Counted from the stretch's first letter, positions 22,242 through 55,917 are shown. The stretch: 64,000 nucleotides of DNA from an uncultured Gammaproteobacteria bacterium (GCA_964438015.1 CAYTIN010000001.1:54074-118073); one strand, 5' to 3'. Notes: generated by a model from the sequence alone, not told the origin. Numbers and translations: made by a program.

Positions 22242-23291
22242 TTAGTCTAAAAGATCCCTGTTATCGAAGATCCGAGAGAGATGGGCGATAATCGTTCCCC
22301 ATTCCGAGATCGGTTTGTTGGACCACTTCTTCGTAATGTCGCGCGAGGCGTCCCATAAGCGGAAACGCAGACCTTCTTCGTTCGGCGAGATGCCCTTAGT
22401 GACGCGGCGGAATTCGCTATGCAGGCTTTCAATGGGATTCGTCGTGTAGACTAAGCGCCGCACAGGCTCCGGATAACTGAAGAATGAAGCGAGCTCTGGC
22501 CATTCTTTTTCCCAGCGGCGGAGGAACGGTTCAAAGTCAGGCCACTTCTTTTTCATTTCTTCAAGAGCGACCAACCCCGCTTCTTCCGTCGGAGCATTGT
22601 AGACCTCTTTGAGATCAGCGCAGAACTTCTCTTTGTTCTTGCCCGTCACATACTTGCTGCTGCCGCGGACAAGGTGATTGATGCACTGCTGAATGGTTGT
22701 TTTCGGAAAAACGTCGGTGATAGCCTTGGAGAATCCCTTAAGGCCGTCGATGCAGCAGATTAAAATGTCTTTGACTCCGCGATTTTTCAAATCGAGCAGA
22801 ACATTTCCCCAGAACTTAGCTCCTTCCGTATCAGCAATCCAGATTCCGAGAAGCTCTTTCTCGCCGTCCATGTTGATGCCCAGCGCATGATAGCTGCATT
22901 TGGTCACGGTCTTGCCGTTTTCTTTCACAGAGCAATGCATGCCGTCTAAAAAGACGATTGGATAAATATGGGAAAGGGGGCGGGTGAGCCATTCGTGCAT
23001 GCGAGGAATGTCTTCTTCAGATGCGGCCGAAATTTTTTCGCGCGACATCTCTACGCCTTCCGCTTCTTTCAGGTAGGCGCGAATACCGCCCGTGGTCATG
23101 CCTTTTCGCTTCAGCGCTTGAATCTTCTCTTTCACGTCAACCTGTTTTCCTGTGAGCTGCATCGATTCCATATTGTGGACGAGGAGCTCATACGAGGGGC
23201 CAAGGAGTTCTTTTAAAAAAGTCTTCTGATCTTCCGGCGAATCGAGCTCCTTTAGTTTTTCCTGAATGTCTGTGAATGTGAATGCTTCCAT
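22242..23291 (-). mobile_element. IS256-family (Mutator-type) transposase, N-terminally shortened
   Basis: The DDE region is clear: IVFLDGMH, ICCIDGLKGF, VYTTNPIESLH, plus the GAKFW motif. At 349 aa it lacks the segment normally lying between the N-terminal helices and the ...GMTT... box. I saw no terminal inverted repeats. Confidence 0.8.
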
Positions 23292-23340: not shown

Positions 23341-24213
23341 TTAGGTAAGATGTTTGTCCAATAGTTTTTGCATTTCTAAGAGTAAGACTTTTTCCTGGTT
23401 GGAGAATGGCGTCTCGGATTTCTCGTGCTTTTTGATCTCCTTGATCGAATCCTCCAGCCAGAGTGAGAAGCCCGACTGAATCGTGTTCTTCTCAAGATCC
23501 TCGACGCTCATATCCGGGTTAGACAAGAACCCGTGGATGTAGTTGATGTTCGCCGTGGTGCGCAGAAAGATGCGTCCCAGCGTGCGAAAATCCTTCGAGC
23601 TATGAATGACTTGGTACTTCACGCGCTCGAAGAGCGTTTTTACGATATCGTCGACCGTAAATTCTTTGATCGGCCGAAGCTTAGGATGCAGCTTCACGAA
23701 CTCGACCTGGTAGCTGGACGAAAGGCCATACTCGTCCATCATGTTTTTGTATTCAGACTTGAGTTTGCTCAGCTTCAAAGAATTACTGATTATCGTTTCG
23801 GAGATGAAAAGCTTTTCGGCCACCTTCTTGTTCTCGTTGATGCCTGAAGCCTTCTTGTAGTTCGCCAAAGCCTCTGCTCGTTCGGTTGGCTTCCAAAGCC
23901 GGCGGTTCGTCTGCCACTCGAAACGAATTCGTTCCAGCTGACCTGCTTCAAGTTTCGGATAGACAAGACAGGGGACTGTAGTCAGCCCGATTTCGCCAGC
24001 GCACTTATGGCGGCGATGCCCATCGATGATCTGGAATTTTCCGTTATCCAGCTTCATTACAGCAATCGGCTGCTGGACCCCAAACTCCTCAAGCGAAAGT
24101 CTGAGGCGATTCTTGTCGCCTTCGGTGTTGAAATCTTCGCGCGGCTGGCGGGGGTCGCGTACCAGCTGCCCGATGGGCAGCTCTTTGAATTCGGCGGAAA
24201 TGGGTTCGGTCAT
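23341..24213 (-). CDS. ParB/Srx N-terminal domain protein (290 aa)
   Basis: LPIGQLVRDPRQPREDF...FQIIDGHRRHKCAGEIGLTTVPC is a ParB box, followed by an HTH-like region. Start at ATG 24213. Confidence 0.7.
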   Translation of the reverse strand: MTEPISAEFKELPIGQLVRDPRQPREDFNTEGDKNRLRLSLEEFGVQQPIAVMKLDNGKFQIIDGHRRHKCAGEIGLTTVPCLVYPKLEAGQLERIRFEWQTNRRLWKPTERAEALANYKKASGINENKKVAEKLFISETIISNSLKLSKLKSEYKNMMDEYGLSSSYQVEFVKLHPKLRPIKEFTVDDIVKTLFERVKYQVIHSSKDFRTLGRIFLRTTANINYIHGFLSNPDMSVEDLEKNTIQSGFSLWLEDSIKEIKKHEKSETPFSNQEKVLLLEMQKLLDKHLT

Positions 24214-24421
24214 AAAAATTTCCGGCAGATTACACAAATTTTTTTATTGGCGTCAAGGGTGGGGGAGGTGATGATGTAGAAAAACCCCTAAAACACTAGG
24301 TAAAATCGCACTATTGCGGAGCACTAAGTGTGCAGCGCAGACATAGGGGAGGGCGCACGAAAATCAACGCAATCTTGGGGGAGCGCAATCGTCCCCAAAT
24401 GGCGCAACCGGAGATTTAAAA

Positions 24422-24454
24422 CCTAAAAACCCAGCTTGGTGCTGGGTTTTTAGG
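24422..24454 (-). terminator. intrinsic terminator closing the mod-res-parB-dam unit
   Basis: CCTAAAAACCCAGC-TTGGT-GCTGGGTTTTTAGG forms a 14-bp perfect stem, 16 nt after the dam stop. A T-run follows on the minus strand. Confidence 0.75.
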
Positions 24455-24469
24455 AGGTCCGTCAGGAAT

Positions 24470-25318
24470 TTAAACCTTCACCTTATCGGACATGATCATG
24501 ACCTCGCGACCTTTGCGGGACTCGTAGGCATTGTATCGTAAGGAGAAATTCTGAATTCTTCGCTTTGGATAAAGAGACTTGATCTGAACTTTATTATCGT
24601 AGGTCAATAACCAAAATGCATCTGGATTTGCGTTTAGACGGTCGGCAAGATCTGCATGATCTCCCTTTTGGTAATGGTTCAAATAAAGAGTTGATCCTTT
24701 TTCAAAATAGGGAGGATCCAAATAAATAAATGCATTTTTCTTTTTTAGGTAACGACCAATCAACGAGACTCCATCTTTGTTGAAAACCGATATCCTATTT
24801 TTGTATAGAGAGAGCTGCCTGATCCGCTCAGCCAATGCCACTCTATTAAAACGTGCATCGATCTTCCACTTGCCCTTCTGTTCAATGCCACCGATTGGTC
24901 CTCCATTTAGAATCCCAGAGACATTTGTTCTATTCAGATAAAATGTGGCAAAACCTAGCTCGAATCGCTTAGACTTGGGATTCGTGTAAATCTTTTTTTG
25001 CTTTCTCCATTCTTTGATTGTCAATGGAACCGAGGAAAGTTTTCTGATGAATTTTTCTGAATCAAAAATTGCAGACTTCCAAAATGAATATATCGCCTTA
25101 TCTAAATCATTGATGACAATCCTCTCCACCTTTTCTAAAAAGAGTAATGCCAAGGCTGCACCAGCACCGCCCGCAAATGGTTCAACGTACGTGACATTCT
25201 TTAAACCGCTATCCTTCAATACGCGGTCAAAGAAAGGGAAAAGCAAAGTCTTACCTCCAGGATATCGCAGGGGACTGTAGTAAAATTTCGGACTTTTTTT
25301 TTGAAGGATACGGATCAT
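24470..25318 (-). CDS. dam: DNA adenine methyltransferase, D12/Dam class (alpha-class)
   Basis: YYSPLRYPGGK, motif I VEPFAGGAGAAL, and motif IV YLDPPYFEKG. Start at ATG 25318, 4 nt after the upstream stop. Confidence 0.85.
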   Translation of the reverse strand: MIRILQKKSPKFYYSPLRYPGGKTLLFPFFDRVLKDSGLKNVTYVEPFAGGAGAALALLFLEKVERIVINDLDKAIYSFWKSAIFDSEKFIRKLSSVPLTIKEWRKQKKIYTNPKSKRFELGFATFYLNRTNVSGILNGGPIGGIEQKGKWKIDARFNRVALAERIRQLSLYKNRISVFNKDGVSLIGRYLKKKNAFIYLDPPYFEKGSTLYLNHYQKGDHADLADRLNANPDAFWLLTYDNKVQIKSLYPKRRIQNFSLRYNAYESRKGREVMIMSDKVKV

Positions 25319-25322
25319 GATC

Positions 25323-26702
25323 TTATTTCGGATCCAAAATGAATCGCAGCATTTTATCCATCGCATCCCAAGCGTCTTCCACGTCTTCTGGACGCGCAAA
25401 AATACTTGGATTGTGATTGATTGCATTAAAGAGCAGCGCTGAATATGCAGTCATCTTTGAGTCGTCCCTGATCCTTTCGCCGACCTGACGCAGCTCATGG
25501 TTCTGCTCCGTCTTCATTTTAGCAATAAAAGCATCAAGTGCGCCATCTAGATAAACGTATCCACCCTGTCTTTGCGGCTGTAGAGCCTGACCGATGTGGG
25601 AGAAGTACGCTTTTAATGCGCATTCCAAGAAGCTTCTAAGAAGATCATGAGCGGCGTTCGGGAATCGATGATGATCGATGGTTTGGAGTTCGTTGAGCAT
25701 CTTTCGAACCCCGGGAGCATTGAGACCGAATTTAACATTTTTTGGTGCTGGGGATTTCCGTTTCTGCGTCTTAACCACTTGCAGAGGACGAAAATTCTTA
25801 CTTGTCAGGATTTTTCCCGTTGCTTTAGTTTTGTTTGGAACATCACTCGGAGGCAAGCTTGCTAGGTATTTCTTGCGTTGATCCTCCTTGTTCAATTTAC
25901 GAGAGTCGATATTCTTCTCTACCACGTCCTGAACGATGCGCTTGAACCCTTTTTCGAATTCTTTTCTCTCAATCTGAATATTCACCTCACCGTCCTTATC
26001 AAAATCAAAACCCAAAAAGTCTCGAACATTCTTATCTTCGTACAAGCGCTCGATGGTCGTAGCAGGAAACGAACGTTCGTCGCGAACTTTTTGATCGATA
26101 GAGTCAGAGTCAAACTTGATGGATTTCGCGATTTGATGAACGCTCAACATTCTCAAAAATCTTTCAATGTTGACGTTCGGATATTCGTTCCGAAGTTCCT
26201 CAACAGTTTTACCTCTCGAGAGCTCAGCTTGATAGAAATGCGCCTGCCTCAACGGCCGCCAGGCACGTCGAGTGTTCTGAGTGTGTTTGCTGGCCAAAAA
26301 ATGGTTAACAGCGGCTCTATTCGGAGCTACAAGGACATCGATTTCATCGATGGAATATCCTAAATCCTTAGCCAATATTTCTATCCTTTTTTCGCGAGAG
26401 GGTACAACTTGAGGACGTAGAAGAGCCTTTAAAGAGGCGATGCGACGATTACCCTCTATCACAACATATTTTTTCTTTTCCTTAACGACAACAGGCAATT
26501 CATCTGGAAAGAATCCGTGTGAGGATATGCTCTCTAGAACCTGCATGGCATCCTCATTTACAAAAAGATCATTAATGAGAGATTCTTGGGCATCCAAAGG
26601 CTGCAGAAGACGAATATTTTCTGGATCAAGAAAAAGATCTGTGATTTTTACCCGTTCTCGGGTCCAGTCTTTGTACTTGGGTTTCTCAAATGTCTTTTTC
26701 AT
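25323..26702 (-). CDS. ParB/Srx N-terminal domain protein with a large uncharacterised C-terminal region (459 aa)
   Basis: VKITDLFLDPENIRL...YVVIEGNRRIASLKAL is a ParB arginine box. The remaining ~340 aa are unassigned. The ATG overlaps the res stop (ATGA at 26699-26702). Confidence 0.7.
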   Translation of the reverse strand: MKKTFEKPKYKDWTRERVKITDLFLDPENIRLLQPLDAQESLINDLFVNEDAMQVLESISSHGFFPDELPVVVKEKKKYVVIEGNRRIASLKALLRPQVVPSREKRIEILAKDLGYSIDEIDVLVAPNRAAVNHFLASKHTQNTRRAWRPLRQAHFYQAELSRGKTVEELRNEYPNVNIERFLRMLSVHQIAKSIKFDSDSIDQKVRDERSFPATTIERLYEDKNVRDFLGFDFDKDGEVNIQIERKEFEKGFKRIVQDVVEKNIDSRKLNKEDQRKKYLASLPPSDVPNKTKATGKILTSKNFRPLQVVKTQKRKSPAPKNVKFGLNAPGVRKMLNELQTIDHHRFPNAAHDLLRSFLECALKAYFSHIGQALQPQRQGGYVYLDGALDAFIAKMKTEQNHELRQVGERIRDDSKMTAYSALLFNAINHNPSIFARPEDVEDAWDAMDKMLRFILDPK

Positions 26703-29404
26703 ACTTTCAAGAGATCAAATATTTCTTTCGGGTCTTCCAGTGCTTTAAATTCCCAACTTCCGAAACCGCCATGAGCATTCACAGCTCTGACCCATTCTTC
26801 GGCAGCAGCCCACTTAGCCTTATCCTGTTCCTTTTTTTGCCCCTTCACTTCAATAATCATATACCGTTCACCTTCGAATCGCAGAAGGAAGTCTGGAAAA
26901 TATGTGTGGACTTTTCCTTGCCAGAGATAGTAAATCTCGAATCCAAGATGATCATTCTTGGCCCAGGATAGAAGGTGGGGGATGCGATTACGCTCAAATT
27001 CGAATCCTACGGACTCCCATCCGCTATCCATGACGATGTGACTCAGTTGGCTCTTTTGAACTGGCTGAGTCGGCTTCGCGGTATACCAAATCGGCGCTGA
27101 TGCTGTGCTACGAAGTGGACGTACGTTGTCGAACACAGGAGCCGGCTCATCCTTACTTGAACTTTTAATAAATTGGCCAATGTGTTCAACAATGCGTTGA
27201 AGGTTGGTCGCAATCAGCACTCGACGGAAGAGATCTCCTTCTTTCGTTTTTGGCACTTTCACATCAAGCTTATCTGACACGATAAAACGATCTAGCAAGG
27301 TCATCAATTGGCTAATGTGACTACCGGCATCACCTTCCCAATTCGAGCCAAGCTTATTCTGTAGCTGAACCGAAGCCTGAAGTTTAGACTTTTGCATCCG
27401 ATGCTCATCCGCTAATTGCTCAAGATCGATTTGCGTCACTTTGGAGAAGTCCGGCTTGCCATCAATGGTCGGCGCAACTTCAACGACCGTAGGGGTATTC
27501 TCGGCCGAGAGCACAAGTGGTGAAAGCTTATCCCACTGGAGATCGAGAAAATATCTAAGCTTGTATTCGACTCGGATTACGTGCGGCCAACGGATTTCCA
27601 AATCTCGACGCGCGATAATAGGCTCGACCTTGGTTTTGGGCGGCATTTCACGCGGCGGCCCCGACTCCGTTTGTTCAACGGGCAGGAAGGTAAATGGAAC
27701 ACCGAAAACAGTAACGTATTCCGCTTCTAACAAGCCCGTTTCAGGATTAACGTCATACGAAATACGTCGGAGCCCACGACCCACAACCTGTTCACACAGA
27801 AGCTGACTAGTGAATGCGCGAACGCCTAAAATATGCGTGACTGTTTTCGCATCCCATCCCTCTGAGAGCATGTTTACGCCAATCACGCATTGAATGTTTT
27901 GACCTGCTTTTCCCTCCTTACCAACCGTATTCATTTTTTCGCGTAATTGCTCAGCCTGTTTCTCCTTACTACCCAAACTCTTGGTTTCCTCTGCTTCGAC
28001 CCTATCTAACGCATCCTGATCAACGCGGATTAATCGATCTTTTTCCTGTAACTCATGAACGGCCGTGAAGCCATTTACAATCGAATATTCAACGCGTGCT
28101 GCGGTTTCAGTTCGATTGCAGATAACAATCATGACCGGAGGAACCTTCATGCCGCCCTTACTCCAACTATCCCTCTCCTTAAGCCAATCTCCCCCTAGGA
28201 TGTTAAGAGCCTGAGAAAGAAGATCCGGGAGACCTTCGTGAGATTCAGCACGCCGATTTAAATCATCCTTCATTTCGGGGTACATGTGGAACAACTTCGA
28301 TTTGAAATCGGAGCCAACACCAGAGTCATCACGGACCGCGACCTTAGGCGTCTTCACGAGCCCACTTTCGATTGCATCATTGAGTCCAAAGTCGCTCACA
28401 ATCCAGCTGAACAATGATTCTCCCGCATTGTTGTGTCCGGATGGACGGAAAGGGGTTGCTGATAAATCATACGTTCTTAAAACGCCACGAGCTCTATGTA
28501 TGCGCTCGATTCCACTAATCCATATCGTAGCCTGTTCCTTTTCAATTCCGCTCAGTTCTTCACCCTCAGATGGCTGATGGCAGTGATGCGCTTCATCGTT
28601 TATGACAAGTATATTTTGTACGCCTCCAAAATCCGGGAGAACGCGTCGAACAAAAGCTTCATCGCTCTCTGGCCCTTTTTTGATCACCTTCGGGCCAGCA
28701 TTCTCATCAAGCGGTGCAAGAGTATGCCAGTTTGTAACCTGTATCTTTGCCCCTTGTAGCTCCTGCCACATGTGAGAGGGGATGACATTGAATGCTTGAT
28801 AGTAATTCTCTGAATCTGATGGCAAGAGAACCTGAAGACGGTCACGGACGGTAATACCTGGTGCAAGAATGAGAATATTTTTTGAAAATCGACCATCTTT
28901 CGGATTCGCGAGTTTATTCAAAGACTGCCATGCAATCAACATGGCCATCACTATCGTCTTTCCTGTTCCTGTAGCAAGTTTAAGACACTGACGTTCCCAA
29001 TCATTCTCACTTGGGATATCGATACCTTGTTTCTCGGCCGGACTGGCCTCGGTAAGCCAAATCGCCGTCTCAATCGCCTCAAGTTGGCACCAGAAGAATG
29101 GAAATTGTCGCTGTTCGCGGTCATTCCAATGATCTAAAAGTTTTTTTGTCGTTCCAGAAATTCCAGGATAGCCTGCGTCGCGCCACGACTTTACTCTAGG
29201 TCGAATTCGATTGACGAGCTCTATTTGGATAAATTCTCCAGGATCATCATAATTTCGTTTATTCGATCCAGAGGCGCGCCAGTATCCGGCCGGACGTCGC
29301 CCATCTTCAAGAATAAACTGCTGAGATTCTCGAGCGTAGACCCAATGCTTAGCCGGTTCTTGGTAGGGGCTGTTGATGATCAATTGTTCAATTTTTGCGC
29401 TCAT
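26699..29404 (-). CDS. res: Type III restriction enzyme Res subunit (SF2 helicase plus C-terminal PD-(D/E)xK nuclease)
   Basis: N-terminus INSPYQEPAKHW, Walker A LATGTGKT, DEAH-box VINDEAHHC, and C-terminus YFPDFLL...MIIEVKGQ. The start overlaps the mod stop. Confidence 0.85.
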   Translation of the reverse strand: MSAKIEQLIINSPYQEPAKHWVYARESQQFILEDGRRPAGYWRASGSNKRNYDDPGEFIQIELVNRIRPRVKSWRDAGYPGISGTTKKLLDHWNDREQRQFPFFWCQLEAIETAIWLTEASPAEKQGIDIPSENDWERQCLKLATGTGKTIVMAMLIAWQSLNKLANPKDGRFSKNILILAPGITVRDRLQVLLPSDSENYYQAFNVIPSHMWQELQGAKIQVTNWHTLAPLDENAGPKVIKKGPESDEAFVRRVLPDFGGVQNILVINDEAHHCHQPSEGEELSGIEKEQATIWISGIERIHRARGVLRTYDLSATPFRPSGHNNAGESLFSWIVSDFGLNDAIESGLVKTPKVAVRDDSGVGSDFKSKLFHMYPEMKDDLNRRAESHEGLPDLLSQALNILGGDWLKERDSWSKGGMKVPPVMIVICNRTETAARVEYSIVNGFTAVHELQEKDRLIRVDQDALDRVEAEETKSLGSKEKQAEQLREKMNTVGKEGKAGQNIQCVIGVNMLSEGWDAKTVTHILGVRAFTSQLLCEQVVGRGLRRISYDVNPETGLLEAEYVTVFGVPFTFLPVEQTESGPPREMPPKTKVEPIIARRDLEIRWPHVIRVEYKLRYFLDLQWDKLSPLVLSAENTPTVVEVAPTIDGKPDFSKVTQIDLEQLADEHRMQKSKLQASVQLQNKLGSNWEGDAGSHISQLMTLLDRFIVSDKLDVKVPKTKEGDLFRRVLIATNLQRIVEHIGQFIKSSSKDEPAPVFDNVRPLRSTASAPIWYTAKPTQPVQKSQLSHIVMDSGWESVGFEFERNRIPHLLSWAKNDHLGFEIYYLWQGKVHTYFPDFLLRFEGERYMIIEVKGQKKEQDKAKWAAAEEWVRAVNAHGGFGSWEFKALEDPKEIFDLLKV

Positions 29405-31923
29405 AGTGATTTCACAACAAACGATTCAATCCCGCGATCATCAATAATCTTTACCGCAATCTTCCTATTCGTTCCGGGGGAAAAGGGGAGTGACTCGATG
29501 CCGGTAAAAGCTTCCATCAATTCCTCGTTCACCGCGCCATTCAAAGATTTGGCTAACTTAGTCCAATCCCTACTTGAATCCTGCATAGGAAAGAAGACCT
29601 GATCCGGGAGAAGACTCTGCTCATCATAATCGGTATCCAACATCCACATCGCAATCTTGCTCGCTCCACCAGAATCAATTTCACCACTTACCGGATTGTA
29701 GTAATCGAACCCTTTTACAACGACCTTGAAGGTACCGTTTTTCTCTGGCATGATCTCAACATCAGGTTGACCAATAAGCCAAAAACTCTGATTTGAAGAT
29801 CGTTTTTTTCTTAAATCTTCCGTCAAAAGATCCACGCTCATCTGCGCTTTCAAGATCGTGATATCACCAGCTCCAAATTTCATTTGATCGATATCTTTCG
29901 CCGCTTCGGGATCAAAATGGAAAGCTGCAAAAATGAGGAAGTTTGGCTTTTCCTGCATGCCCACTGCTTCATTGACTGCTTGCTCAACTTGACGCTGCTC
30001 AAGCGGGCCGAAGTCTGGACCAAAACTTATATAGGCTTTTTTGGGCTGACCTACGCTGTCTAGTATTTCACCCTCAGCATGAAGCCATTTCGTACCGCTT
30101 AACGGCTCAATACGAGAAAATTGCAGGAAGTGGCCCCCGGTAGCACGAATTCCACTAGCCTTTAGTTCATCACACCAGTGCGCATAGTTAGCAGTTTCGC
30201 CTGCACGAGCAACTGCATTCCCAGTAATGGAAGAATTTCTCTCTTTTGAATCAAAGGGTTTTGTTCTGAGAGAGGGGACAGCTTCTACCGTAAATGGACC
30301 AGCGGCTCTAACTTTTTCTTTTTCTACCTTTGGCTGATCGTATAACGTCTCCTCGTGTGGAGGAGCATTATTAGCGACACTCGCCATTGTGATTCTTGGG
30401 TAGGTTTTGTAGATGAATCCGCTTTGCAGTCCTTCCTCGGGTTTCTTAAGTGCAAAATAAGGGAAGGCCGCTGTCATCATTCGCTGCTTAGCCAGAGCAA
30501 TAGCAACCCTCGATGTATCACATGCCATCCAACGTCTACCGAATAGCTCCGCAGTGTAGGCAGTGGAACCTGATCCGCACGTTGGATCGAATACCAAATC
30601 GCCTGGATCCGTTGTTAGCAGCATGCAGCGCCTAATGATCTCAGTATTTGTCTGAACCACGTAAATCGGATTCGCCGCACCACCAAACCCTTCCCATAGG
30701 TTGCTAAGTGTCTTATACGGAAAATCATCAAAATACTTAACAAAGCGAATGCTGTTCTCAGTCGCCCAGATGCGGCCTGCACTAATAATTTTTTCTATAC
30801 CTTCTTTTGTTGTTCCCCACCATCTGGATCCAGAATCATATTTTCGTCCTTTAAATTCGACGTCGAATTTTGATCCGGGTCCTGGCTTAGTCATTAAAAC
30901 TGTTGAGAAAAGTTTGCTTCCCTTGGGGAGTAATTTGATGTTCTTTTTTTCCTCAGGGGTCAGATTACGTCTCTCACCATCTGCTAATTCCACCATCGTG
31001 TAACCTTCTTCGACCGGCCCTCCTCGTTCTTCAAAAACAGGACGATATTTCATTCGCTCGGCATTCTTTGCATACCAAACAATATAATCTAGACGTGAGC
31101 CAACTCGATTAGCAGCCTCCAAACCACCGGCCGCTTTCGAGAACGCGATCATGGAAATAAAGTTATCTTTTCCAAATACCTCATCCATGATTTCTCGTAC
31201 GTGATGAACGTTCTCGTCATTGATTTGTAAAAAACAGCTCCCAGTTTCGTGAAGCAAACTCTTTATCAATTGGACCCTGTCCCGAAGATAGGTCAGGTAG
31301 GAATGGATTCCTAACTCCCATGTATCGCGGAAGGCTTTTATCATCTCTGGCTCAGATGAGAGGCCCTCATCGCTTCCATCCTTAACATCTCTACGATTAA
31401 CGAAGGGTTGAAAATTTGAATTGTACTTAATTCCGTATGGAGGATCGAAATAAACCATTTGCAAGTGTCCCTCCATGCCTTCCTTTTCGAGCAGACTGTT
31501 CATGACCAACAACGAGTCGCCGGCAATCAATCGATTACTCCAATCTTGATCATGCGAATAAAATTCAACAGCTTTATTTAAAGGGAGCTGATTCTCAATA
31601 TATTCGAAAAGCGACTGCTGCTTTAAGCCTGTTCGTTCACGTAAAAAGGATTTGATGATGCGCCGAGAATCAATTCTTTCGTGGACATGCAAGCTTACGA
31701 CCGGAACATCAAAATTCGTTCCTTCGGCCTTACCGGCCCAACTCAGATTCGGATCTATGTGCGGGTCGTGTTGGTATTTTTTCACACCACCAACACTATC
31801 CGTAGCGGTCGATACAAGTCCAACAGGAGGATTGTTGGTGCGTTTGCGGCCAACGTGCGTGTACGCTGCAACGCTAATCTCTTTGGGCGCAGCCGCCCGG
31901 GTTGAAACCGCTTTTCTAGGCAT
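29401..31923 (-). CDS. mod: Type III-like DNA methyltransferase Mod (beta-class N6/N4)
   Basis: Motif IV VYFDPPYGIKYNS precedes motif I VFDPTCGSGSTA. 840 aa. Confidence 0.85.
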   Translation of the reverse strand: MPRKAVSTRAAAPKEISVAAYTHVGRKRTNNPPVGLVSTATDSVGGVKKYQHDPHIDPNLSWAGKAEGTNFDVPVVSLHVHERIDSRRIIKSFLRERTGLKQQSLFEYIENQLPLNKAVEFYSHDQDWSNRLIAGDSLLVMNSLLEKEGMEGHLQMVYFDPPYGIKYNSNFQPFVNRRDVKDGSDEGLSSEPEMIKAFRDTWELGIHSYLTYLRDRVQLIKSLLHETGSCFLQINDENVHHVREIMDEVFGKDNFISMIAFSKAAGGLEAANRVGSRLDYIVWYAKNAERMKYRPVFEERGGPVEEGYTMVELADGERRNLTPEEKKNIKLLPKGSKLFSTVLMTKPGPGSKFDVEFKGRKYDSGSRWWGTTKEGIEKIISAGRIWATENSIRFVKYFDDFPYKTLSNLWEGFGGAANPIYVVQTNTEIIRRCMLLTTDPGDLVFDPTCGSGSTAYTAELFGRRWMACDTSRVAIALAKQRMMTAAFPYFALKKPEEGLQSGFIYKTYPRITMASVANNAPPHEETLYDQPKVEKEKVRAAGPFTVEAVPSLRTKPFDSKERNSSITGNAVARAGETANYAHWCDELKASGIRATGGHFLQFSRIEPLSGTKWLHAEGEILDSVGQPKKAYISFGPDFGPLEQRQVEQAVNEAVGMQEKPNFLIFAAFHFDPEAAKDIDQMKFGAGDITILKAQMSVDLLTEDLRKKRSSNQSFWLIGQPDVEIMPEKNGTFKVVVKGFDYYNPVSGEIDSGGASKIAMWMLDTDYDEQSLLPDQVFFPMQDSSRDWTKLAKSLNGAVNEELMEAFTGIESLPFSPGTNRKIAVKIIDDRGIESFVVKSL

Positions 31924-32021
31924 AAATATGGCTCAATTCTCCCTCATTTGCGGCTAGTTTACAAGGGCGGCCGGTTAAGGTATTTTTGCAGTAACTATCA
32001 TGATCCACTGCCTCAGGAGAT

Positions 32022-32065
32022 AAACCGCCAAACCGTTCGGAATTGAACGGCTTTTGGTGGTTTTT
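32022..32065 (+). terminator. long imperfect hairpin plus T-run just upstream of tRNA-Arg
   Basis: AAACCGCCAAACCGTTC-GGAATT-GAACGGCTTTTGGTGGTTT followed by TT. There is no nearby + strand gene to terminate. Confidence 0.4.
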
Positions 32066-32080
32066 GATTATCGAAATTTT

Positions 32081-32156
32081 GCTCCCGTAGGCTAATGGAT
32101 TAAACCACCTCGGTTCTAACGAGGATTTCCGGGTTCGAGTCCCGGCGGGAGTACCA
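32081..32156 (+). tRNA. tRNA-Arg (anticodon TCT), CCA encoded
   Basis: Folded by hand: acceptor GCTCCCG/CGGGAGT, anticodon arm CCTCG-GTTCTAA-CGAGG, T arm CCGGG-TTCGAGT-CCCGG. Confidence 0.85.
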
Positions 32157-32498: not shown

Positions 32499-33377
32499 AT
32501 GCGTGAACCTACAGGGTTAACGCTCCAAGAGGGTCTTTCAGAGTTTACGGAATGGGGGATGGGTAAGTACTCCCATAACACGGTGAGGACCTATACGGAC
32601 CTCATCGGACGGTTCATCACGTTCGCCGGCGACAGGCCGCTGGCGGATATCAAAGTGACCGAGATCGCCAAATATCACGGCTATCTCAAAAACAAGGACT
32701 ACGCTGACTCCTCCGTCGCCTTCATGATGGTCGCGCTACGTCAGTTCATGAAATACCTGTTCCTGCGGCACGAAATCACTTGGGACTACCAGCTGGTGTC
32801 GGTCCCAAAGTACGTCAGCCGCTCCTATGCGCCCGTAGAGACTGAAGATGCCAGATCGATGATCGATGGGCTGCGTGCTGACAATTTTCGTAGCCTACGC
32901 GATAAGGTCATGCTCTCATTCCTCTATTCGTCAGGCGTCCGCGTTGCCGAGCTCTGCTGCCTTGAAACGAAGGATCTCCGGATCCAAGATGGCCATGGCT
33001 CAATCATCTCCAAAAAGAACCGCCAGCTTCGCATGGTGTTCTGGGACGATGCGACTGCAGCGCTCTTGAATGAATATCTGCCTCAACGCAATCTCTGGGC
33101 AACGTCTGATGCGCTATTCATCTCCATGGACCGCAAGAATAGGGGAGGGAAGCTATCAACGAGGACTGTCCAGCGGCTTGTAGCCGATCTGCGGCCGAAC
33201 AAGAATATTTCGCCGCACTCATTCCGACACGGTTTAGGCATGCGGGCAGTAAAGTCGGGGATACACCCTCGTTACATCCAAAAAATCCTCGGGCACAAGA
33301 ATATCAACTCGAGCCAGATCTATCTGGACGTACATGACGAAGATGTCGTCAAAGCGTACCAAAAGATCGCGGCCTAA
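32499..33377 (+). CDS. tyrosine recombinase/integrase (XerC/D-like)
   Basis: SAM-like N-domain, then catalytic SGVRVAEL (R), HSFRHG (HxxR), LGHKNINSSQIY (H...Y). Confidence 0.85.
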   Translation: MREPTGLTLQEGLSEFTEWGMGKYSHNTVRTYTDLIGRFITFAGDRPLADIKVTEIAKYHGYLKNKDYADSSVAFMMVALRQFMKYLFLRHEITWDYQLVSVPKYVSRSYAPVETEDARSMIDGLRADNFRSLRDKVMLSFLYSSGVRVAELCCLETKDLRIQDGHGSIISKKNRQLRMVFWDDATAALLNEYLPQRNLWATSDALFISMDRKNRGGKLSTRTVQRLVADLRPNKNISPHSFRHGLGMRAVKSGIHPRYIQKILGHKNINSSQIYLDVHDEDVVKAYQKIAA

Positions 33378-37627: not shown

Positions 37628-38692
37628 TCATTTTCCTGCTATGACGGCAAGTATATGCTCTGCCACCGCTTCCCAAGAGAAAGACGCGGCCCGTAAACGT
37701 CCTTCTTGCTGCTTCTTTTGCCACCAGGATGTATCCAAAAAAAGTTTACTAATAGCGACTATCCATGCCTCTCGATCACGAGGGTCAAGCAACACTCCTG
37801 CCTGTCCAATCACTTCTGGATGTCCCCCTACCCTGCTTACCACAACTGGTGTCCCATGCGCCATAGCTTCCAGAGTCACCCGTCCAAAACCTTCATGCAG
37901 GGAAGGAACCAACACTAACCGCGATTGCTGAAATAAGGCATCCCGTTCTTCATCCGACACCCGAATCACTCGCTGAACAGTCCCATTATCCTTCACAGAC
38001 ACCTGCCCCCATCCCCTGCTTCCTGCGATCACTAGCTGCACACGACGACCAACCCGACGACAAACCTCCGGCCACAAATCAACAAGGAAAGTAATGTTCT
38101 TACGCGGCTCAACCGTCCCAAACACCAAGGCTTGGTCAAGACGATCAGAAAACCCTGGTACCCTCTCTGGAACCCGTACCCCTTCGCTCGTCACGCTCAT
38201 CACTTCCTCGGGTAGAGACATTAAGGCCGCCACCGCTCGTCTCGTATCTTCACTAACACAAAAAATATGTTGTGCCTTATTTAACCCATGTAAAAAGAGC
38301 CGAGTCGTGAGTTGACGCCGAAGCCAAGACTGCGGGAACCATTCCGGGTGCGAAAAAATGGCCACGTCATGTACCCAAGCAAAGGCTGGTAAAGAAAGGC
38401 TTAAGGGAATCGAACCCGTAGGAGCAAAAAAGGCATGGCATCCGTCCATCCGGACGGCCTGCAAGAGCCGACGCGAAGAAAAAACGGTATGACTCTTGGA
38501 AGAACCAAGACGCGCAACCTTCCCCCCTCCTCCAATGTCTGCATCCCCTCCTGCATATCCAATACATTCAACACCAAACAGAGAGGCTCGTTCGCTGCAC
38601 GCTTGAAAGAGCTCACGGGTAGCATGAGGAATCCCCGCGCCCGGTGAACCATCGGCCGGCAAGCAGCGCAAGTCAAACGCAATACGCTTCAT
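37628..38692 (-). CDS. glycosyltransferase family 1 (GT4-type)
   Basis: EGFGRVTLEAMAHGTPVVVSRVGGHPEV is the E-x7-E region. ATG 38692 overlaps the upstream stop (ATGA). Confidence 0.8.
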   Translation of the reverse strand: MKRIAFDLRCLPADGSPGAGIPHATRELFQACSERASLFGVECIGYAGGDADIGGGGKVARLGSSKSHTVFSSRRLLQAVRMDGCHAFFAPTGSIPLSLSLPAFAWVHDVAIFSHPEWFPQSWLRRQLTTRLFLHGLNKAQHIFCVSEDTRRAVAALMSLPEEVMSVTSEGVRVPERVPGFSDRLDQALVFGTVEPRKNITFLVDLWPEVCRRVGRRVQLVIAGSRGWGQVSVKDNGTVQRVIRVSDEERDALFQQSRLVLVPSLHEGFGRVTLEAMAHGTPVVVSRVGGHPEVIGQAGVLLDPRDREAWIVAISKLFLDTSWWQKKQQEGRLRAASFSWEAVAEHILAVIAGK

Positions 38693-39663
38693 GGGCGGAC
38701 GGTAGAAGCAAGGACGGAAGGGCGAGCTGCGGCCGCAGTAGACGGCCAACGAAAATTCTCAAAGGTCCAAAATGTTAAGGCTTTCGCATCTTGGAAACGA
38801 GAAAAATGATTATCACTACCAAGAACCACGACAATCACTTCATGTCCAGCCTTATCTCGTGTCGCTTGAGCCAAACAATAGCCCGCTTCCGGTAAAGAGC
38901 CGGTTTTCCCAGCAATAATACGATACGGATCACGATTCAAAAACGAACCCAATAATAAATTGGTGCTATCAATCAAATACGGCTTAGCGGTGGCCCGGCC
39001 AATAAGCTGGATTTTAGAAATTTTAGTAATCTCGCGAATTTCGGGATAATGCAAGGCCGCTCGCAACGCTAACGCCACATCATGCGCCGAGGCTTGGTTA
39101 TTACTATCCAAACCCGTCGGATCATCAAAATGCGCTTGCCGCATACCTAAGATTTGGGCTTTGGCATTCATGGCCGATAAAAAACTCTTCATACCCCCTC
39201 CGCTGCGCGCCAACGCATCACCAGCAATATTCACGGATCCAATCAAAAGTGATTCAAGTAACTCCCGACGGGTAAAACGCTCTCCTTGCGGAAACACAGA
39301 CTTTCCTTCTTTTGGTTCATCTTCCCTTAAAATAGTGATCACCTCATCCATATCAGACGACTGATCCAAGACCGTCATGGCCGTCATCAATTTCGTAAGA
39401 CTCGCAATTGGGTAAGCAGTCTCGGCATTTTTCTCGTACAGCACCTCACCACTTGCTACGTCAATCGCAATCGCTGCCCGTGCCGTGGTCTCGATTCCAA
39501 AGGAATTAGGGTCTTTTTTTGTAGGAGGTTGAGGACCCGGCACATAGCGCGCAACCGGCAACGACTGAATGACAACCGGTTGAGCCGCCGGGATACGGGC
39601 TTCACGGACCGTAAGGACCGTCGTAAGTGCTAAAAACGATTCAGCGAACATGACGGCTATCAT
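38689..39663 (-). CDS. D-alanyl-D-alanine carboxypeptidase (S11 family)
   Basis: SxxK motif IASLTKLM, KTG motif AGKTGSL, and an N-terminal membrane anchor. Confidence 0.8.
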   Translation of the reverse strand: MIAVMFAESFLALTTVLTVREARIPAAQPVVIQSLPVARYVPGPQPPTKKDPNSFGIETTARAAIAIDVASGEVLYEKNAETAYPIASLTKLMTAMTVLDQSSDMDEVITILREDEPKEGKSVFPQGERFTRRELLESLLIGSVNIAGDALARSGGGMKSFLSAMNAKAQILGMRQAHFDDPTGLDSNNQASAHDVALALRAALHYPEIREITKISKIQLIGRATAKPYLIDSTNLLLGSFLNRDPYRIIAGKTGSLPEAGYCLAQATRDKAGHEVIVVVLGSDNHFSRFQDAKALTFWTFENFRWPSTAAAARPSVLASTVRP

Positions 39664-40979: not shown

Positions 40980-42389
40980 CTATGCCATTTTTATATGGGC
41001 TTCACGAATTTGCTTATCATCAAGTAGCGAGGGAGCACCCATCATAAGGTCACGGCCATCACCTGTTTTGGGCACAGCCGTAACTTCACGGATATTCGGC
41101 TCGTTCGCCAAAATCATCACAAGACGGTCAAGTCCGGGACCAAGCCCGCCATGCGGAGGTGCACCATAACTAAACGCTTCCAGCATGTGACCAAATTTCT
41201 GCTGAATCTGTTCTTCGGTATGGCCTAAAATCTCAAACACTTTTTTCAACGCTTCTGGCGTATGGTTACGAATACTACCTCCACCAACCTCGTAGCCATT
41301 TAAGACAATATCATATTGAGTCGTCAGGATCTCGCCTATATTCTTCTTCTCAAGAAGCCATTGCCGATGCTCCGGCTTAGCAGCCGAAAAAGGATTGTGA
41401 CTATATGTCCATTCCCCTTCCTCAGTCTTTTCAAAAAAGGGAAAATCTACCACCCATTCAAAGGCAAGCAAGTCAGGGTCACTTTTATCTTCGCGTAAGT
41501 CAGGCTTGTCCGTCCCATACTTCTCCATAACTTCTTTGTAGGATAAGCGAGGAAAGGGAACTTGCTGGATACGTTTATGTGGAGTAACCGTTTTCACAAG
41601 CTCAACAAGTAGCTGCTCGAACAGGCTCATCACATCTTCACGCTCAACAAACGACATCTCAAGATCGAATTGTGTGTGCTCAAGTTGACGGTCGCCTCGT
41701 TGGTCTTCGTCACGAAAACAACGTGCCATTTGAAAGTAGCGCTCAATGCCACCTACCATCATGAGCTGCTTAAACTGTTGCGGTGACTGAGGCAACACAT
41801 AAAACTGTCCGGGATGAATACGAGAAGGAACAATAAACTCACGCGAACCCTCGGGGGTGCCTTTTGTGAGATAAGGAGTTTCAATTTCCAAGAATCCGTG
41901 ACGGTGAAGGAAATCACGAAAAAACTTGGCGACCGCATCACGCAAAATCATGTTTTTAAGCATGCGCGGCGACCGCAGATCCAAATACCGGTACTTAAGA
42001 CGTAACTCCTCATTCACTTTAGAGGTATCTTCAATTTCAAACGGCAACGTTTTGGCAGGATTTAAAATGATCAATCGCTTCGCTAAAACTTCAACCGTGC
42101 CGGTAGGCAGGTCTGCGTTGATTTGTTTTTCTCCACGTTTTTGAACAACTCCATGAATCTCCACACAAAACTCACCACGTACTTCTTTCATGGTTTCCCG
42201 AGAAGCTTCGTCCAACTCCGCCGGGACAAGCACCACCTGAACCAAACCCGATCGGTCGCGGACATCCAAAAACGCCAATTTTCCCATGTCTCGGCGGGTA
42301 TTGACCCACCCTTTAAGCAAGACGGACTCGCCGATCTTGCCAACCGTTTCTAAAACCATGCTGCGCGTCATATCGCCGTAGCTTCGCAT
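40980..42389 (-). CDS. aspS: aspartate--tRNA ligase, bacterial type but lacking the GAD insertion domain
   Basis: QSPQQFKQLMMVGGIERYFQMARCFRDEDQRGDRQLEHTQFDLEMSF and GAPPHGGLGPGLDRL. Only 469 aa. Confidence 0.9.
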   Translation of the reverse strand: MRSYGDMTRSMVLETVGKIGESVLLKGWVNTRRDMGKLAFLDVRDRSGLVQVVLVPAELDEASRETMKEVRGEFCVEIHGVVQKRGEKQINADLPTGTVEVLAKRLIILNPAKTLPFEIEDTSKVNEELRLKYRYLDLRSPRMLKNMILRDAVAKFFRDFLHRHGFLEIETPYLTKGTPEGSREFIVPSRIHPGQFYVLPQSPQQFKQLMMVGGIERYFQMARCFRDEDQRGDRQLEHTQFDLEMSFVEREDVMSLFEQLLVELVKTVTPHKRIQQVPFPRLSYKEVMEKYGTDKPDLREDKSDPDLLAFEWVVDFPFFEKTEEGEWTYSHNPFSAAKPEHRQWLLEKKNIGEILTTQYDIVLNGYEVGGGSIRNHTPEALKKVFEILGHTEEQIQQKFGHMLEAFSYGAPPHGGLGPGLDRLVMILANEPNIREVTAVPKTGDGRDLMMGAPSLLDDKQIREAHIKMA

Positions 42390-43636: not shown

Positions 43637-44956
43637 CTACGGTTCCATCCGATTCAACATACGTGGAAACGGAATCGTTTCACGAATGTGGTGAATGCCA
43701 CACAGCCAACGCACCGTACGCTCAAGGCCAAGGCCGAATCCACTATGGGTAACTGTCCCGTATCTACGGGTATTTAAATACCACTCATATTGCTGCAACG
43801 GGTAGTTACGAGCAATAATTTCTTGCTTCAACTTATCATGATCTTCTTCACGTTGGCTGCCGCCAATAATCTCACGACCTTCCTCGGGCGCAATCAAGTC
43901 CGCACAACGAGCGCGAAGAACGCCTCGTTCATCCGTAAACCGTTTCATGTAAAACGATTTTATCTCTGCAGGATAATCTTCAATAAAAACAGGGAGCTGA
44001 TATTTATTCCCAAGCGCGATCTCCTCTTCCGTGGACATGTCATCAAGCCAATACGCATCATCATAGACCTCCTTCTGAATCAATCCCTCCTCTTTGAGGA
44101 TGCGTTTTGCTTCGTAATGTTTAAGATGCACAAATGGTTCATGAACCAAACGCTGAAGAAGCGTCGTGTCACGTTCTAAAATCTGTAACTCAGCTTGACA
44201 CTGTTCCAGAACATCTTTCACGATCCGTTTCACCAACCGCTCCTCAACCTCCATGTTCATGGCTTGGTCATGGTAGGCCATTTCGGCATCCACCATCCAA
44301 AGCTCAGAAAGATGATGACGCGTCTTGCTTTTTTCTGCGCGAAACACTGGACCAAAGTCGTATACTTTCCCAAACCCCATGATCCCCGCTTCACTGTAGA
44401 GCTGTCCCGACTGAGAAAGGTAGCCGGGAGTATCATAATAATTCACGGTAAATAATTGCGTTGTATCTTCACAGCTCGTTGGCTGAATAATGGGCGTGTC
44501 AAATCGTATAAACCCTTCTTCGTGAAAAAACTGTTCGATCGAAAAAAACACCCGATCACGTATCCGCAACACCGCCCAAGGCGTCTTGGAACGTAAATAT
44601 AAATCCCGGTTATCAAATAAGAAATCGGGTCCATGCTCTTTCTTTCCAATCGGATACTCCTCCGCACGATGCACTAGCTTGACGTTAGTTGCTTGCAATT
44701 CAAACACACCCTCTTGTTTTGGATGTTTAACGACCGTTCCTTCGACAATGCAAGAAGACTCGATCGTAACTTGCGTAGCCGCATTCCAAGTCGCTTCATC
44801 AACGCCTGACTTAGCTACGACAGCCTGCGTAAATCCGGAACCATCACGCATCTGCAAAAAAGCGATCGATCCACTCGAACGGACATTGTAGGCCCAACCC
44901 TGAATGGTAACCACCTGTCCAACCAAACGGGAAAAATCTTTGATAGAAGCCATCAT
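43637..44956 (-). CDS. asnS: asparagine--tRNA ligase
   Basis: OB-fold N-terminus (VTIQGWAYNVRSSGSIAFLQMRDGSG), class II motifs (FRAEKS..., GFGLGLER), 439 aa. Confidence 0.9.
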   Translation of the reverse strand: MMASIKDFSRLVGQVVTIQGWAYNVRSSGSIAFLQMRDGSGFTQAVVAKSGVDEATWNAATQVTIESSCIVEGTVVKHPKQEGVFELQATNVKLVHRAEEYPIGKKEHGPDFLFDNRDLYLRSKTPWAVLRIRDRVFFSIEQFFHEEGFIRFDTPIIQPTSCEDTTQLFTVNYYDTPGYLSQSGQLYSEAGIMGFGKVYDFGPVFRAEKSKTRHHLSELWMVDAEMAYHDQAMNMEVEERLVKRIVKDVLEQCQAELQILERDTTLLQRLVHEPFVHLKHYEAKRILKEEGLIQKEVYDDAYWLDDMSTEEEIALGNKYQLPVFIEDYPAEIKSFYMKRFTDERGVLRARCADLIAPEEGREIIGGSQREEDHDKLKQEIIARNYPLQQYEWYLNTRRYGTVTHSGFGLGLERTVRWLCGIHHIRETIPFPRMLNRMEP

Positions 44957-54423: not shown

Positions 54424-55917
54424 CTACTCCTCTACTTCTCTACCCGCTTTCGGTCTCAAAGTAGGAAACGCAATCACCTCCTTTAAGTTCGGAGCATTGG
54501 TCAAAAAAGCAACTAAACGATCGATACCTATGCCGAATCCAGAGGTAGGCGGCATCCCCTGCTCTAAAGCAAACAAGAAATCCTCGTCAACTTGCTGCGC
54601 TTCGTCGCTCCCCTGCTCACGCAGCATTTCTTGTGCTTCAAACCGACGACGCTGGTCAAGTGGATCGGTTAATTCATGGTAATAGGCATTGATAATCTCT
54701 GCTCCTTCAACAACTAATTGAGCAGAAGCACTCTTGGTTGCATCGTGGGCACAACTACGCGCTAGCGGCTTGAGCTCCACCGGGTAATCCAACACCCACG
54801 TTGGCTGACGGAAGGCGGCACGCGCCGTTTTTTTGTACAACTCATCGTAGTATTCGCCAATCCCCACACACCCTTTAAAATCAATCGCTAGCTCCTTGCT
54901 TTTCACCGCTTGGACAAGGGACTTCTCATCTCGATGGGCATCAATATCAATTCCACATGCATCCAGGATAGCTTGACGAAAAGTGGTCCGTGGCCAAGCC
55001 ACGGAAAAATCAATCTCATGGTCTTCGTAGGGAACGCGGAGAGCACCAACAGCAGATTGAATCATGTGACGCATGATTGATTCCAAGAAATCGATAAACC
55101 CATCTTTGACAGGAGCGAATGCCCAGTACAGTTCAGCCATGGTAAATTCCGGGTTATGGGCGTAATCGATGCCCTCGTTGCGGAACGAACGGCCAACCTC
55201 GTAGACTTTCTCAAATCCACCTACTACAAGACGCTTCAAAAACAGTTCAGGAGCGATGCGCAAATACAGGTCAACGTCCAAACTATTATGGTGCGTGATA
55301 AACGGACGCGCATTAGCCCCACCGGGAATCGCATGCAAAATGGGTGTCTCCACCTCCATGAATCCACGTTCATCCAAAAAGTGGCGCAAAGCCGACACCA
55401 TCCGTGAACGCGCGACCAACCGCTGGCGGGTCTCTGCATTCATGATCAAGTCCAATTCGCGATGACGATAACGCGCTTCAACATCCTGTAATCCATGCCA
55501 TTTCTCCGGCAATGGCCGCAAGGCTTTAGACAACACTCGCCAACTTTGCACCGCCAACGATTTCTCCCCACGCTTGGTCACAAACAATGTCCCCGTCGCT
55601 TCGACAAAATCCGACGGATCCATCAAATCGCGGAAACGCGTGAATACCTCTTCACCAATATCATCTTGCTTAAACGTAAATTGCAACTTCCCCGATTGGT
55701 CCAAGACATCGGCAAACATCATCCCGCCGTGCACACGGATCGTAAGGATGCGTCCAGCTAAGGTAACCACACGAGCCTCGCCAGACAATGTCTCAAACGC
55801 GGACAAAGCCTCACCCATCGTATGCGTACGCACGGCGTCAGACGTGTAAGGATCGACACCCAACGCCTTGAGCTTAGTTAACTTCTCACGCCGTACCTGA
55901 AATTCATCAAGCAACAT
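54424..55917 (-). CDS. lysS: lysine--tRNA ligase (class II)
   Basis: OB N-domain, [32 protein letters not shown], and [15 protein letters not shown]. Confidence 0.9.

Follow-up and report, generated by a model that had tools for sequence, protein, structure and literature searches.

A predicted PD-λ-5 cassette behind a Type III-like restriction-modification pair in a prophage cargo slot

We describe here four tightly packed genes, mod, res, A and B, found in a 64,000-nucleotide (nt) stretch of DNA (CAYTIN010000001.1:54074-118073), the whole of which is referred to as the window and numbered from its first letter. All four lie on the minus strand. The first, mod (29401-31923), encodes a Type III-type beta-class N6-adenine DNA methyltransferase of 840 amino acids (aa) with a long C-terminal extension, and res (26699-29404) a 901-aa Type III-like restriction subunit of the BPTD_3080 family, in which a superfamily 2 (SF2) helicase is followed by a C-terminal PD-(D/E)xK nuclease. 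Gene A (25323-26702), a 459-aa open reading frame (ORF), specifies a predicted ParB/HEPN-type protein, and gene B (24470-25318) a D12 (Dam-class) N6-adenine DNA methyltransferase. The latter has 282 aa when counted from the ATG adopted in an earlier reading of the locus made from the sequence alone (the sequence-only reading); a longer ORF extends to 25426. As set out below, A and B appear to constitute PD-λ-5, an already named two-gene anti-phage system, here stacked on a Type III-like restriction-modification (R-M) pair.

The coordinates and strand given for these genes by the sequence-only reading are all correct, and the junctions that it described can be read directly from the DNA. An ATGA overlap joins mod to res (...atcactATGAgcg) and another joins res to A (...aaagtATGAaaaag), and the stop codon of A is followed after 4 nt by the start of B (TAA-gatc-ATG). 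An intrinsic terminator on the minus strand (24422-24454) closes the set: the hairpin, from 24454 to 24422, has a 14-bp stem containing seven GC pairs and a 5-nt loop, and is followed by the T-rich tail TTTTAAAT. This is the strongest terminator-like site across 23.0-32.6 kb, and on the minus strand between 31923 and 24470 none comparable with it was seen. Since each junction is an overlap or a 4-nt gap and one strong terminator follows B, mod-res-A-B is probably a single transcription unit running from upstream of mod to that terminator. The leader and presumed promoter region (31924-32080, minus strand) is the sole non-coding gap upstream of mod and separates its start from a tRNA-Arg gene. 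The block had also been described as richer in AT than both of its flanks. The GC content of the operon, at 45.2% (A, 43.8%; B, 39.8%), is clearly lower than that of the phage DNA to the left (55.4%), but only about 4 points below that of the host DNA to the right (49.6%), and the two genes beyond the terminator (ParB290 and a transposase, see below), at around 50%, are not AT-rich.

No Pfam or NCBIfam entry matches the 459-aa product of A above threshold. In PADLOC it matches 25 models, 24 of which are PD-Lambda-5_A (best 2.2e-58), and its alignment with PDLC04013 is full-length, placing residues 15-457 on model positions 5-437 of 440; it also matches phrog_9592. The predicted layout comprises a ParB-like nucleoside triphosphate-binding N-terminal domain and a helical DNA-binding domain (residues 1 to about 290), followed by a HEPN-like helical bundle (about 325-459). 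The ParB fold proposed in the sequence-only reading is supported by an AlphaFold model (predicted local distance difference test, pLDDT, 82.4), whose first 280 or so residues match ParB, Noc and KorB in Foldseek with E-values of 1e-5 to 1e-3 and probability 1.0; the gene calls are likewise correct, and the other folds were confirmed with Pfam. When the C-terminal 142 residues were modelled alone (pLDDT 87.6), HEPN proteins dominated the top Foldseek hits, among them 4nqf, 1wol, YutE, MNT-HEPN toxins, AbiV and the sacsin HEPN domain, none of them being significant. Comparison of 46 relatives, at 25-53% identity, shows D26, N29, R31, E83-G-N-R-R87, H140, W148, R219 and R268 to be invariant in the ParB half; among them are the DxxNxR and GxRR motifs, which correspond to the nucleotide-binding boxes of ParB. 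In the C-terminal half E338 and H430 are invariant, with R356 and N431 nearly so. A match of residues 404-454 (window 25323-25490) to the Pfam G6PD_C family was treated as spurious, falling as it does under the gathering cutoff and on a helical segment; it is seen in nine of 12 A relatives, the best at 2e-5 and 24 bits against a cutoff of 27.

Gene B matches the PADLOC model PD-Lambda-5_B (PDLC04018) at 7.2e-109 over model positions 4-274 of 291, as well as the Pfam family MethyltransfD12, and its FAGGAG and DPPY201 motifs are intact. Against TIGR00571 (dam) it scores 56 bits, under the cutoff of 114.85, so that B, although of the Dam class, is no orthologue of Dam proper. As it happens, the 4 nt separating A from B spell GATC. 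On the basis of the PADLOC matches to both genes, A and B can be assigned to PD-λ-5. The sequence-only reading had found that a ParB-fold protein coupled to an additional methylase could be placed in no named system; that claim falls, and what looked like an unclassifiable four-gene system becomes a named one, PD-λ-5, stacked on Type III-like R-M, and is not reportable as a new defence system.

PD-λ-5 figures among the 21 systems validated by Vassallo et al. (2022), whose supplementary table lists its components as 'ParB/HEPN, methyltransferase' and who describe it as a compact 'RM+Abi' (restriction-modification plus abortive infection). The founder comes from a prophage of E. coli ECOR7, and its A-B pair alone protects E. 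coli; no other system of the set protected so broadly, and T-even phages were blocked more strongly than λvir and T7. Cloning succeeded only in a host lacking the mrr region, implying that the methylase is active (Vassallo et al., 2022). The window copy shares with it the adjacent order A then B, the size and type of both products (A, around 450-490 aa, described as ParB/HEPN; B, around 280-330 aa, methyltransferase) and a prophage location. It differs in its apparent Patescibacteria host and in being too diverged for a DNA match: none was found when all complete E. coli genomes were searched with the 8.6-kb block. It differs also in arrangement, since A-B here, known from sequence alone, follows directly on a Type III-like mod-res pair as the tail of its operon, instead of standing alone behind a promoter of its own.

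Relatives of A were gathered by a metagenome scan with an alignment, yielding 80 loci, and by a single-protein scan of genome contigs, yielding at least three distant ones. The family is sizeable, with 244 clusters at 50% identity for E ≤ 1e-30 and 1,148 clusters for E ≤ 1e-10, and is found mainly in Patescibacteria and other uncultured lineages under the NCBI name 'ParB/Srx family N-terminal domain-containing protein'. In 74 of the 80 metagenomic loci, tblastn places B directly downstream of A on the same strand, which bears out the suggestion that homologues of the 459-aa protein recurrently precede a Dam-class methyltransferase; of the six exceptions, five are contigs that stop there and one has the order B-A. 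Since A is followed by B in essentially all 80, the pair behaves as a self-contained cassette, and most A-B loci are without any adjacent mod or res. In Marinobacter phage AS1, A-B adjoins the phage integrase. At around ten loci (L032:3159-7657, L033, L034, L039, L043, L048, L049 and L060, and in inverted form L076 and L077) A-B is followed by a second, shorter ParB-like protein of about 355 aa, which matches the PD-Lambda-5_A models over its N-terminal half only; these loci mostly lie near TrwC relaxase or HTH_17 genes, and in nine of them an uncharacterised gene of about 354 aa comes next. A similar pair, consisting of a ParB-N protein and a hypothetical gene, stands beside a methyltransferase in the cargo hotspot of P2-like coliphages (L094, NC_049457).

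The upstream half of the operon is recognisable as R-M. Mod matches the Pfam family N6_N4_Mtase (7.9e-27) and PADLOC MTase_III (PDLC03632, 2e-147), and has DPPY at residue 160; its C-terminal extension of about 340 aa has no Pfam match. Res exceeds the NCBIfam equivalog NF046055 cutoff (BPTD_3080 family restriction endonuclease; 1003.6 bits against 800) and comprises the Pfam domains ResIII and Tn7_TnsA-like_N, a TnsA-like PD-(D/E)xK nuclease, with the helicase and PD-ExK motifs all intact (GTGKT146, DEAH270, SAT315 and PD837...E852-V-K854). Its match to PADLOC REase_III is weak (2.3e-8 over 64 residues), which suggests a branch divergent from EcoP1I and EcoP15I. The pair shares with other members of the BPTD_3080 Type III family an N6_N4-class Mod and an overlapping Res of SF2 helicase and C-terminal PD-(D/E)xK nuclease, and differs from them in the unusual length of Mod and in the two additional, probably co-transcribed genes. 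Plasmid homologues of mod-res, at 33-48% identity, are annotated as mod and BPTD_3080 res (for mod itself, identity to its counterparts beside BPTD_3080-family res genes, on plasmids and in L101, is 42-51%), and frequently have accessory genes inside or after the operon (L096, L097, L098). Thus in a Rhizobium plasmid homologue DUF6883 follows res, with a DUF262 protein and a UvrD-type helicase nearby; a Thermus brockianus plasmid (L097) has DUF3800 between mod and res and an AbrB/PIN pair after res; and a Planktothrix homologue has two hypothetical genes between mod and res. From these extra genes it would appear that the BPTD_3080 Type III-like family commonly hosts passengers. A DUF3800 gene is present also in the L089 prophage.

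The independence of the two halves is seen in sister loci, namely contigs of related groundwater genomes that bear the same prophage end. In four of them (L089-L092) the order is recombinase, three small genes, mod, res, a 247-aa gene, a 134-aa gene and tail fibre, and A-B, ParB290 and the transposase are absent; relative to the window the recombinase, in the same position, is 90% identical, res 93% and mod 67%. Another (L093) carries mod, res, A, B and tail fibre without ParB290 or the transposase, with 92% identity in res, 83% in A and 94% in B. The two remaining (L099 and L100) have ParB290 (90-95% identical), the 349-aa transposase (91%) and tail fibre, with none of mod, res, A or B. Across L089 and L093 mod identity is 67-75%, whereas res holds at 92-93%. 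Since each group of loci contains a different subset, the prophage slot stacks three independently exchangeable modules: mod-res, A-B, and ParB290 with the transposase. The slot occupied by A-B in the window contains in L089 (11670-12786), and likewise in L090-L092, two co-oriented genes of 247 and 126-134 aa that begin 3 nt after the 93%-identical res; the 247-aa and 134-aa products match nothing in Pfam, PADLOC or PHROGs and are candidates for accessory or defence cargo.

These comparisons qualify the coupling emphasised in the sequence-only reading. The four genes do form one tightly packed unit, but not an obligate one, given res without A-B in L089-L092 and A-B without mod or res in most loci. 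The ATGA overlap of res and A is likewise not a conserved feature, being replaced by a 3-nt gap in L093. Nor does the second ParB-fold gene, ParB290, belong to the system as had been proposed: its absence from L093, and its presence in L099 and L100 beside the transposase, where mod, res, A and B are all missing, point to a passenger paired with the transposase and lying outside the R-M/PD-λ-5 unit.

ParB290 (23341-24213, minus strand) encodes a 290-aa protein of classical ParB type, which matches Pfam ParB_N and HTH_ParB, exceeds the TIGR00180 cutoff and falls in the PHROGs family 'ParB-like partition protein'; on this evidence it looks like the ParB-like proteins common in phages. As previously noted, it stands behind its own intergenic region, 256 nt long and containing a promoter-like element (TTGACG-18 nt-TAATCT). 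No sequence similarity to A was found beyond a (D/E)G(H/N)RR motif, and comparison showed ParB290 to be related neither to A nor to the second ParB-like gene that follows A-B in around ten loci. Of a ParABS partition system it has the ParB_N plus HTH_ParB protein, but it lies between the terminator after B and the transposase, and a ParABS assignment fails because no ParA-type ATPase gene is adjacent, in the window or in L099. The neighbouring transposase (22242-23291, minus strand; 349 aa, Mutator/IS256 family) matches Pfam Transposase_mut at 1.7e-66 over model positions 101-376 of 379, the first hundred or so positions being missing. It is kept at 349 aa in L099 (8923-9972; 91% identity) and always stands beside ParB290. 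The conserved length and the constant neighbour suggest a ParB290-transposase unit, and not a decayed insertion sequence fragment.

We then consider the genes upstream of A across its relatives. Neighbours of A in the fetched loci were clustered and annotated, and further loci were looked up, with upstream R-M understood as immediately upstream and on the same strand. The partners are diverse, ranging over Types I, II, IIG and III as well as lone endonucleases. Type I hsdM-S-R genes precede A by 48-73 nt in L011, L013 and L015; Type IIG or Eco57I-TaqI_C enzymes by 7-39 nt in L019, L022, L023 and L025; HARE-HTH PD-(D/E)xK nucleases with MutH-like or IIG partners by 43-176 nt in L012, L014 and L017; and, in a phage-like region, a Type II trio of C5-methylase, R.HinP1I and Vsr by 17 nt in L105 and L106. 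Type III-like genes precede A in the window and L093 (ATGA overlap and 3 nt, respectively) and, at 80 nt, in L101 and L102, where a divergent member of the same Type III-like family has the opposite gene order, res-mod-A-B (res 33%, mod 42%, A 62% and B 78% identical to the window). A neighbour-joining tree of A places all these R-M-linked loci in the window's clade, in which upstream R-M is found in 13 of the 21 lineages with enough upstream sequence, close relatives differing in partner type. In other clades A-B lies beside TrwC relaxases or housekeeping genes, and an R-M-like gene is upstream in only about three of 28; one of these cases is L085, in which A comes directly after a fragment with homology (33% identity) to the C-terminus of Mod. 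Apart from that fragment, tblastn at 1e-5 found no mod or res of the window type next to A in the 80 loci; the other R-M types came to light through the clustering and annotation of neighbours. The expectation that homologues of the 459-aa protein follow restriction genes was therefore right for the window's clade, often, but does not extend to most A-B loci. In L012 (3008-4406) A-B is immediately preceded by a MutH-like nuclease, from the family that nicks GATC, and a HARE-HTH PD-(D/E)xK nuclease, with no other methylase in between, and the Dam-class B may be the cognate methylase of these nucleases.

The pattern has a precedent in Anantharaman et al. (2013), who described HEPN effectors built into R-M operons to serve as a second line of defence; ParB-HEPN fusions are among the cases in their survey, as are operons that combine a HEPN gene with genes for a ParB nuclease and a DNA methylase. 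The recurrent A-B/R-M arrangement fits this published idea of R-M with a HEPN back-up, and both the composite operon and the clade-specific association with R-M lie within published concepts. It hints that this PD-λ-5 clade is preferentially appended to restriction operons of every type. One might go further and suppose that the A-B cassettes of the clade are specialised riders at the 3' ends of Type I, II, IIG and III operons, having joined the BPTD_3080 family at least three times, and that they serve as a type-independent fail-safe, co-expressed with R-M and firing when restriction is bypassed or inhibited; we offer this as speculation, and think it doubtful.

The reading that we consider probable is that the 8.5-kb block contains two self-sufficient defence modules in one operon, in a prophage cargo slot, with a third, unrelated module (ParB290 and the transposase) alongside. 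In the first layer Mod would methylate adenine in its own recognition site, and Res, driven by ATP, would find unmodified sites and cut them with its C-terminal nuclease; the family assignment and the intact motifs suggest such activity. In the second layer B would mark the resident DNA and A would act as both sensor and effector. Most likely the ParB-like half of A would load on DNA and sense a missing B mark or some other infection cue, upon which RNA would be cut by the freed HEPN-like domain, or DNA nicked by the freed ParB domain, and the infection halted. B would keep A harmless to the host, A remaining silent on host DNA, and this could explain why A and B are never separated. The order of these events, the RNase activity and any cross-talk between the layers are conjectural parts of the scheme.

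Several observations weigh against this picture. The HEPN matches of the C-terminal domain of A are weak, with E-values of 0.46 or above and template modelling (TM) scores of 0.49 or below, and profile searches of the domain against PDB sequences and Pfam gave nothing but noise. The canonical HEPN motif Rx4-6H is not conserved among A relatives, R346 being variable, and the domain conserves only H430, E338 and, nearly, R356; given the missing motif, an RNase assignment is plausible but unproven. We found no published mechanism for PD-λ-5 in the literature searched. A sigma-70 consensus scan for the operon promoter found no site on the minus strand, though the consensus is uninformative for a Patescibacteria host. 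As to the independence of the layers, A-B sits directly behind R-M in those 13 of 21 clade lineages, and three junctions (the window with L093, L101 with L102, and L085) involve the same Type III-like family; this association exceeds what simple clustering in islands might give, and the layers might be functionally coupled.

Such coupling is the essence of one alternative, according to which A-B is a dedicated guard of the upstream R-M genes in an integrated four-gene system resembling PrrC/EcoprrI: A would be silenced by Mod and Res and would fire when a phage anti-restriction protein disables them, B supplying a second protective mark. The translational coupling of res to A through ATGA in the window would suit such an arrangement, as would the frequency of upstream R-M in the clade, the recurrence of the Type III-like family with A-B in another gene order, if at only 33-42% identity (L101), the Mod-like C-terminus ahead of A in L085, and the established theme of HEPN proteins in R-M operons (Anantharaman et al., 2013). 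We nevertheless think it unlikely. The same res, 93% identical, is found in an operon without A-B; the ATGA junction widens to 3 nt in L093 and to 80 nt in L101; most A-B loci have no adjacent R-M; and those that do are paired with R-M of unrelated types, hardly what a specific interface between the proteins would lead one to expect. Besides, A-B alone suffices to protect E. coli (Vassallo et al., 2022).

A further alternative, to our minds less likely again, keeps A-B autonomous and denies it any RNase or abortive part. A-B would then be a small Type II-like R-M system, and the operon two R-M systems in tandem, the ParB/Srx domain cutting DNA that lacks B methylation and the C-terminal domain being structural or regulatory. 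Strict pairing with a methyltransferase of intact catalytic motifs is indeed a hallmark of R-M, conservation within A is strongest in the ParB motifs, the HEPN matches lack statistical strength, and DNase or nicking activity of ParB/Srx proteins is documented (Maindola 2014; RK2 ParB). Yet the invariance of E338 and H430 implies a conserved active or binding site in the C-terminal domain. The DNA of T-even phages is heavily modified and resists most classical restriction enzymes. It is against these phages that PD-λ-5 protects best, and the screen that retained it had dropped clones with the high-frequency epigenetic escape typical of R-M (Vassallo et al., 2022); the same authors annotate the A founder as ParB/HEPN and the system as RM+Abi. 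The ParB-fold genes might, finally, serve mobile-element maintenance or partition and not defence, which we regard as very improbable. It is ParB290 that lends itself to the idea, with its classical ParB_N and HTH_ParB domains, its TIGR00180 and PHROGs partition matches and its travelling with a transposase at the prophage end in L099 and L100; for that protein we favour either maintenance or partition, or a role as ParB-like regulator or nuclease. The identity of A as PD-λ-5_A, its obligate methyltransferase partner and its extra effector-like C-terminal domain all point instead to defence, and neither A nor ParB290 has a ParA-type ATPase gene adjoining it in the window, the neighbours being B, res and the transposase.

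Comparison with other systems places A-B further. With PrrC-EcoprrI it shares a putative HEPN-type effector gene inside or at the end of an R-M operon and the idea of a second line of defence. PrrC, however, has an ABC-ATPase N-terminal domain, relies on a Type Ic partner and lacks a dedicated methyltransferase, whereas A has a ParB-like N-terminal domain, always brings its own methyltransferase and mostly has no R-M neighbour; A is accordingly not a PrrC-type anticodon nuclease, only the position in the operon being alike. DndB and DpdB resemble A in having a fold of the ParB/Srx superfamily in a defence context linked to DNA modification, but A is set apart by its effector-like C-terminal domain and by its partner, which is a plain adenine methyltransferase. 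The exclusion of Dnd and Dpd in the sequence-only reading stands, as the PADLOC hits returned for A and its neighbours include no Dnd or Dpd model, and the partner genes (dndACDE, dpdA/dpdC) are absent from the locus, where A is accompanied by res, mod, a D12 methylase, ParB290 and the transposase. GmrSD and BrxU combine an N-terminal ParB-like nucleotide-binding domain with a C-terminal nuclease-type effector in one polypeptide, as A appears to do, and are often appended to other defence operons. GmrSD, however, consists of DUF262 and DUF1524/HNH, attacks modified DNA and has no cognate methylase; these Type IV enzymes were ruled out, A having no match to DUF262 or DUF1524/HNH in Pfam.

Under the two-module reading the locus offers some practical handles. 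The Patescibacteria prophage slot is a clean natural case of modular cargo exchange, in which the same res is seen with three downstream cargos. The operon pair with and without A-B makes the concept of R-M with a HEPN back-up (Anantharaman et al., 2013; Vassallo et al., 2022) testable, and the invariant residues of A (D26, N29, R31, EGNRR83-87, E338 and H430) are mutagenesis targets for the PD-λ-5 mechanism.

The surroundings agree with the phage, IS256-like transposase, tRNA gene and integrase reported on either side of the block, Transposase_mut, Phage_integrase and tRNA-Arg all being found as placed. Positions 1-22206 are prophage, with tape measure, Dit-like, collar and tail-fibre genes, the left end lying outside the window; the operon occupies a slot between the tail-fibre genes and the recombinase. 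Tail modules closely related to those of this prophage recur in several groundwater metagenomes (L089-L093, L099). On the plus strand to the right of the operon are a tRNA-Arg (TCT) gene found with ARAGORN (32081-32156) and a 292-aa tyrosine recombinase, XerD-like or integrase, matching Pfam Phage_integrase (32499-33377). For both the recombinase and the tail fibre, proteins of 90% identity or more bear NCBI names referring to Patescibacteria, the recombinase cluster being named Patescibacteria recombinase or XerD, and the prophage thus appears to reside in a genome of the Patescibacteria (candidate phyla radiation, CPR).

Between 32081 and 37602 the recombinase gene and two ORFs of 280 and 380 aa lie among four tRNA genes (Arg-TCT, Leu-CAA and two Met-CAT); the two ORFs match no family and are syntenic with the prophage in L089-L092. 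On account of that synteny one or other tRNA-Met gene may mark the prophage boundary. To the right of about 37.6 kb lie host genes, among them those for three class II aminoacyl-tRNA synthetases, for PBP2 and for a D-Ala-D-Ala carboxypeptidase. Adjoining the tRNA cluster at the edge of the island is a GT4 glycosyltransferase (37628-38749) that also matches the Pfam entry PF20706, 'Family 4 glycosyltransferase in conflict systems' (1.8e-13). The three synthetases are paralogues of the Asp/Asn/Lys type, encoded within 15 kb of host sequence at 40980-42389, 43637-44956 and 54424-55917.

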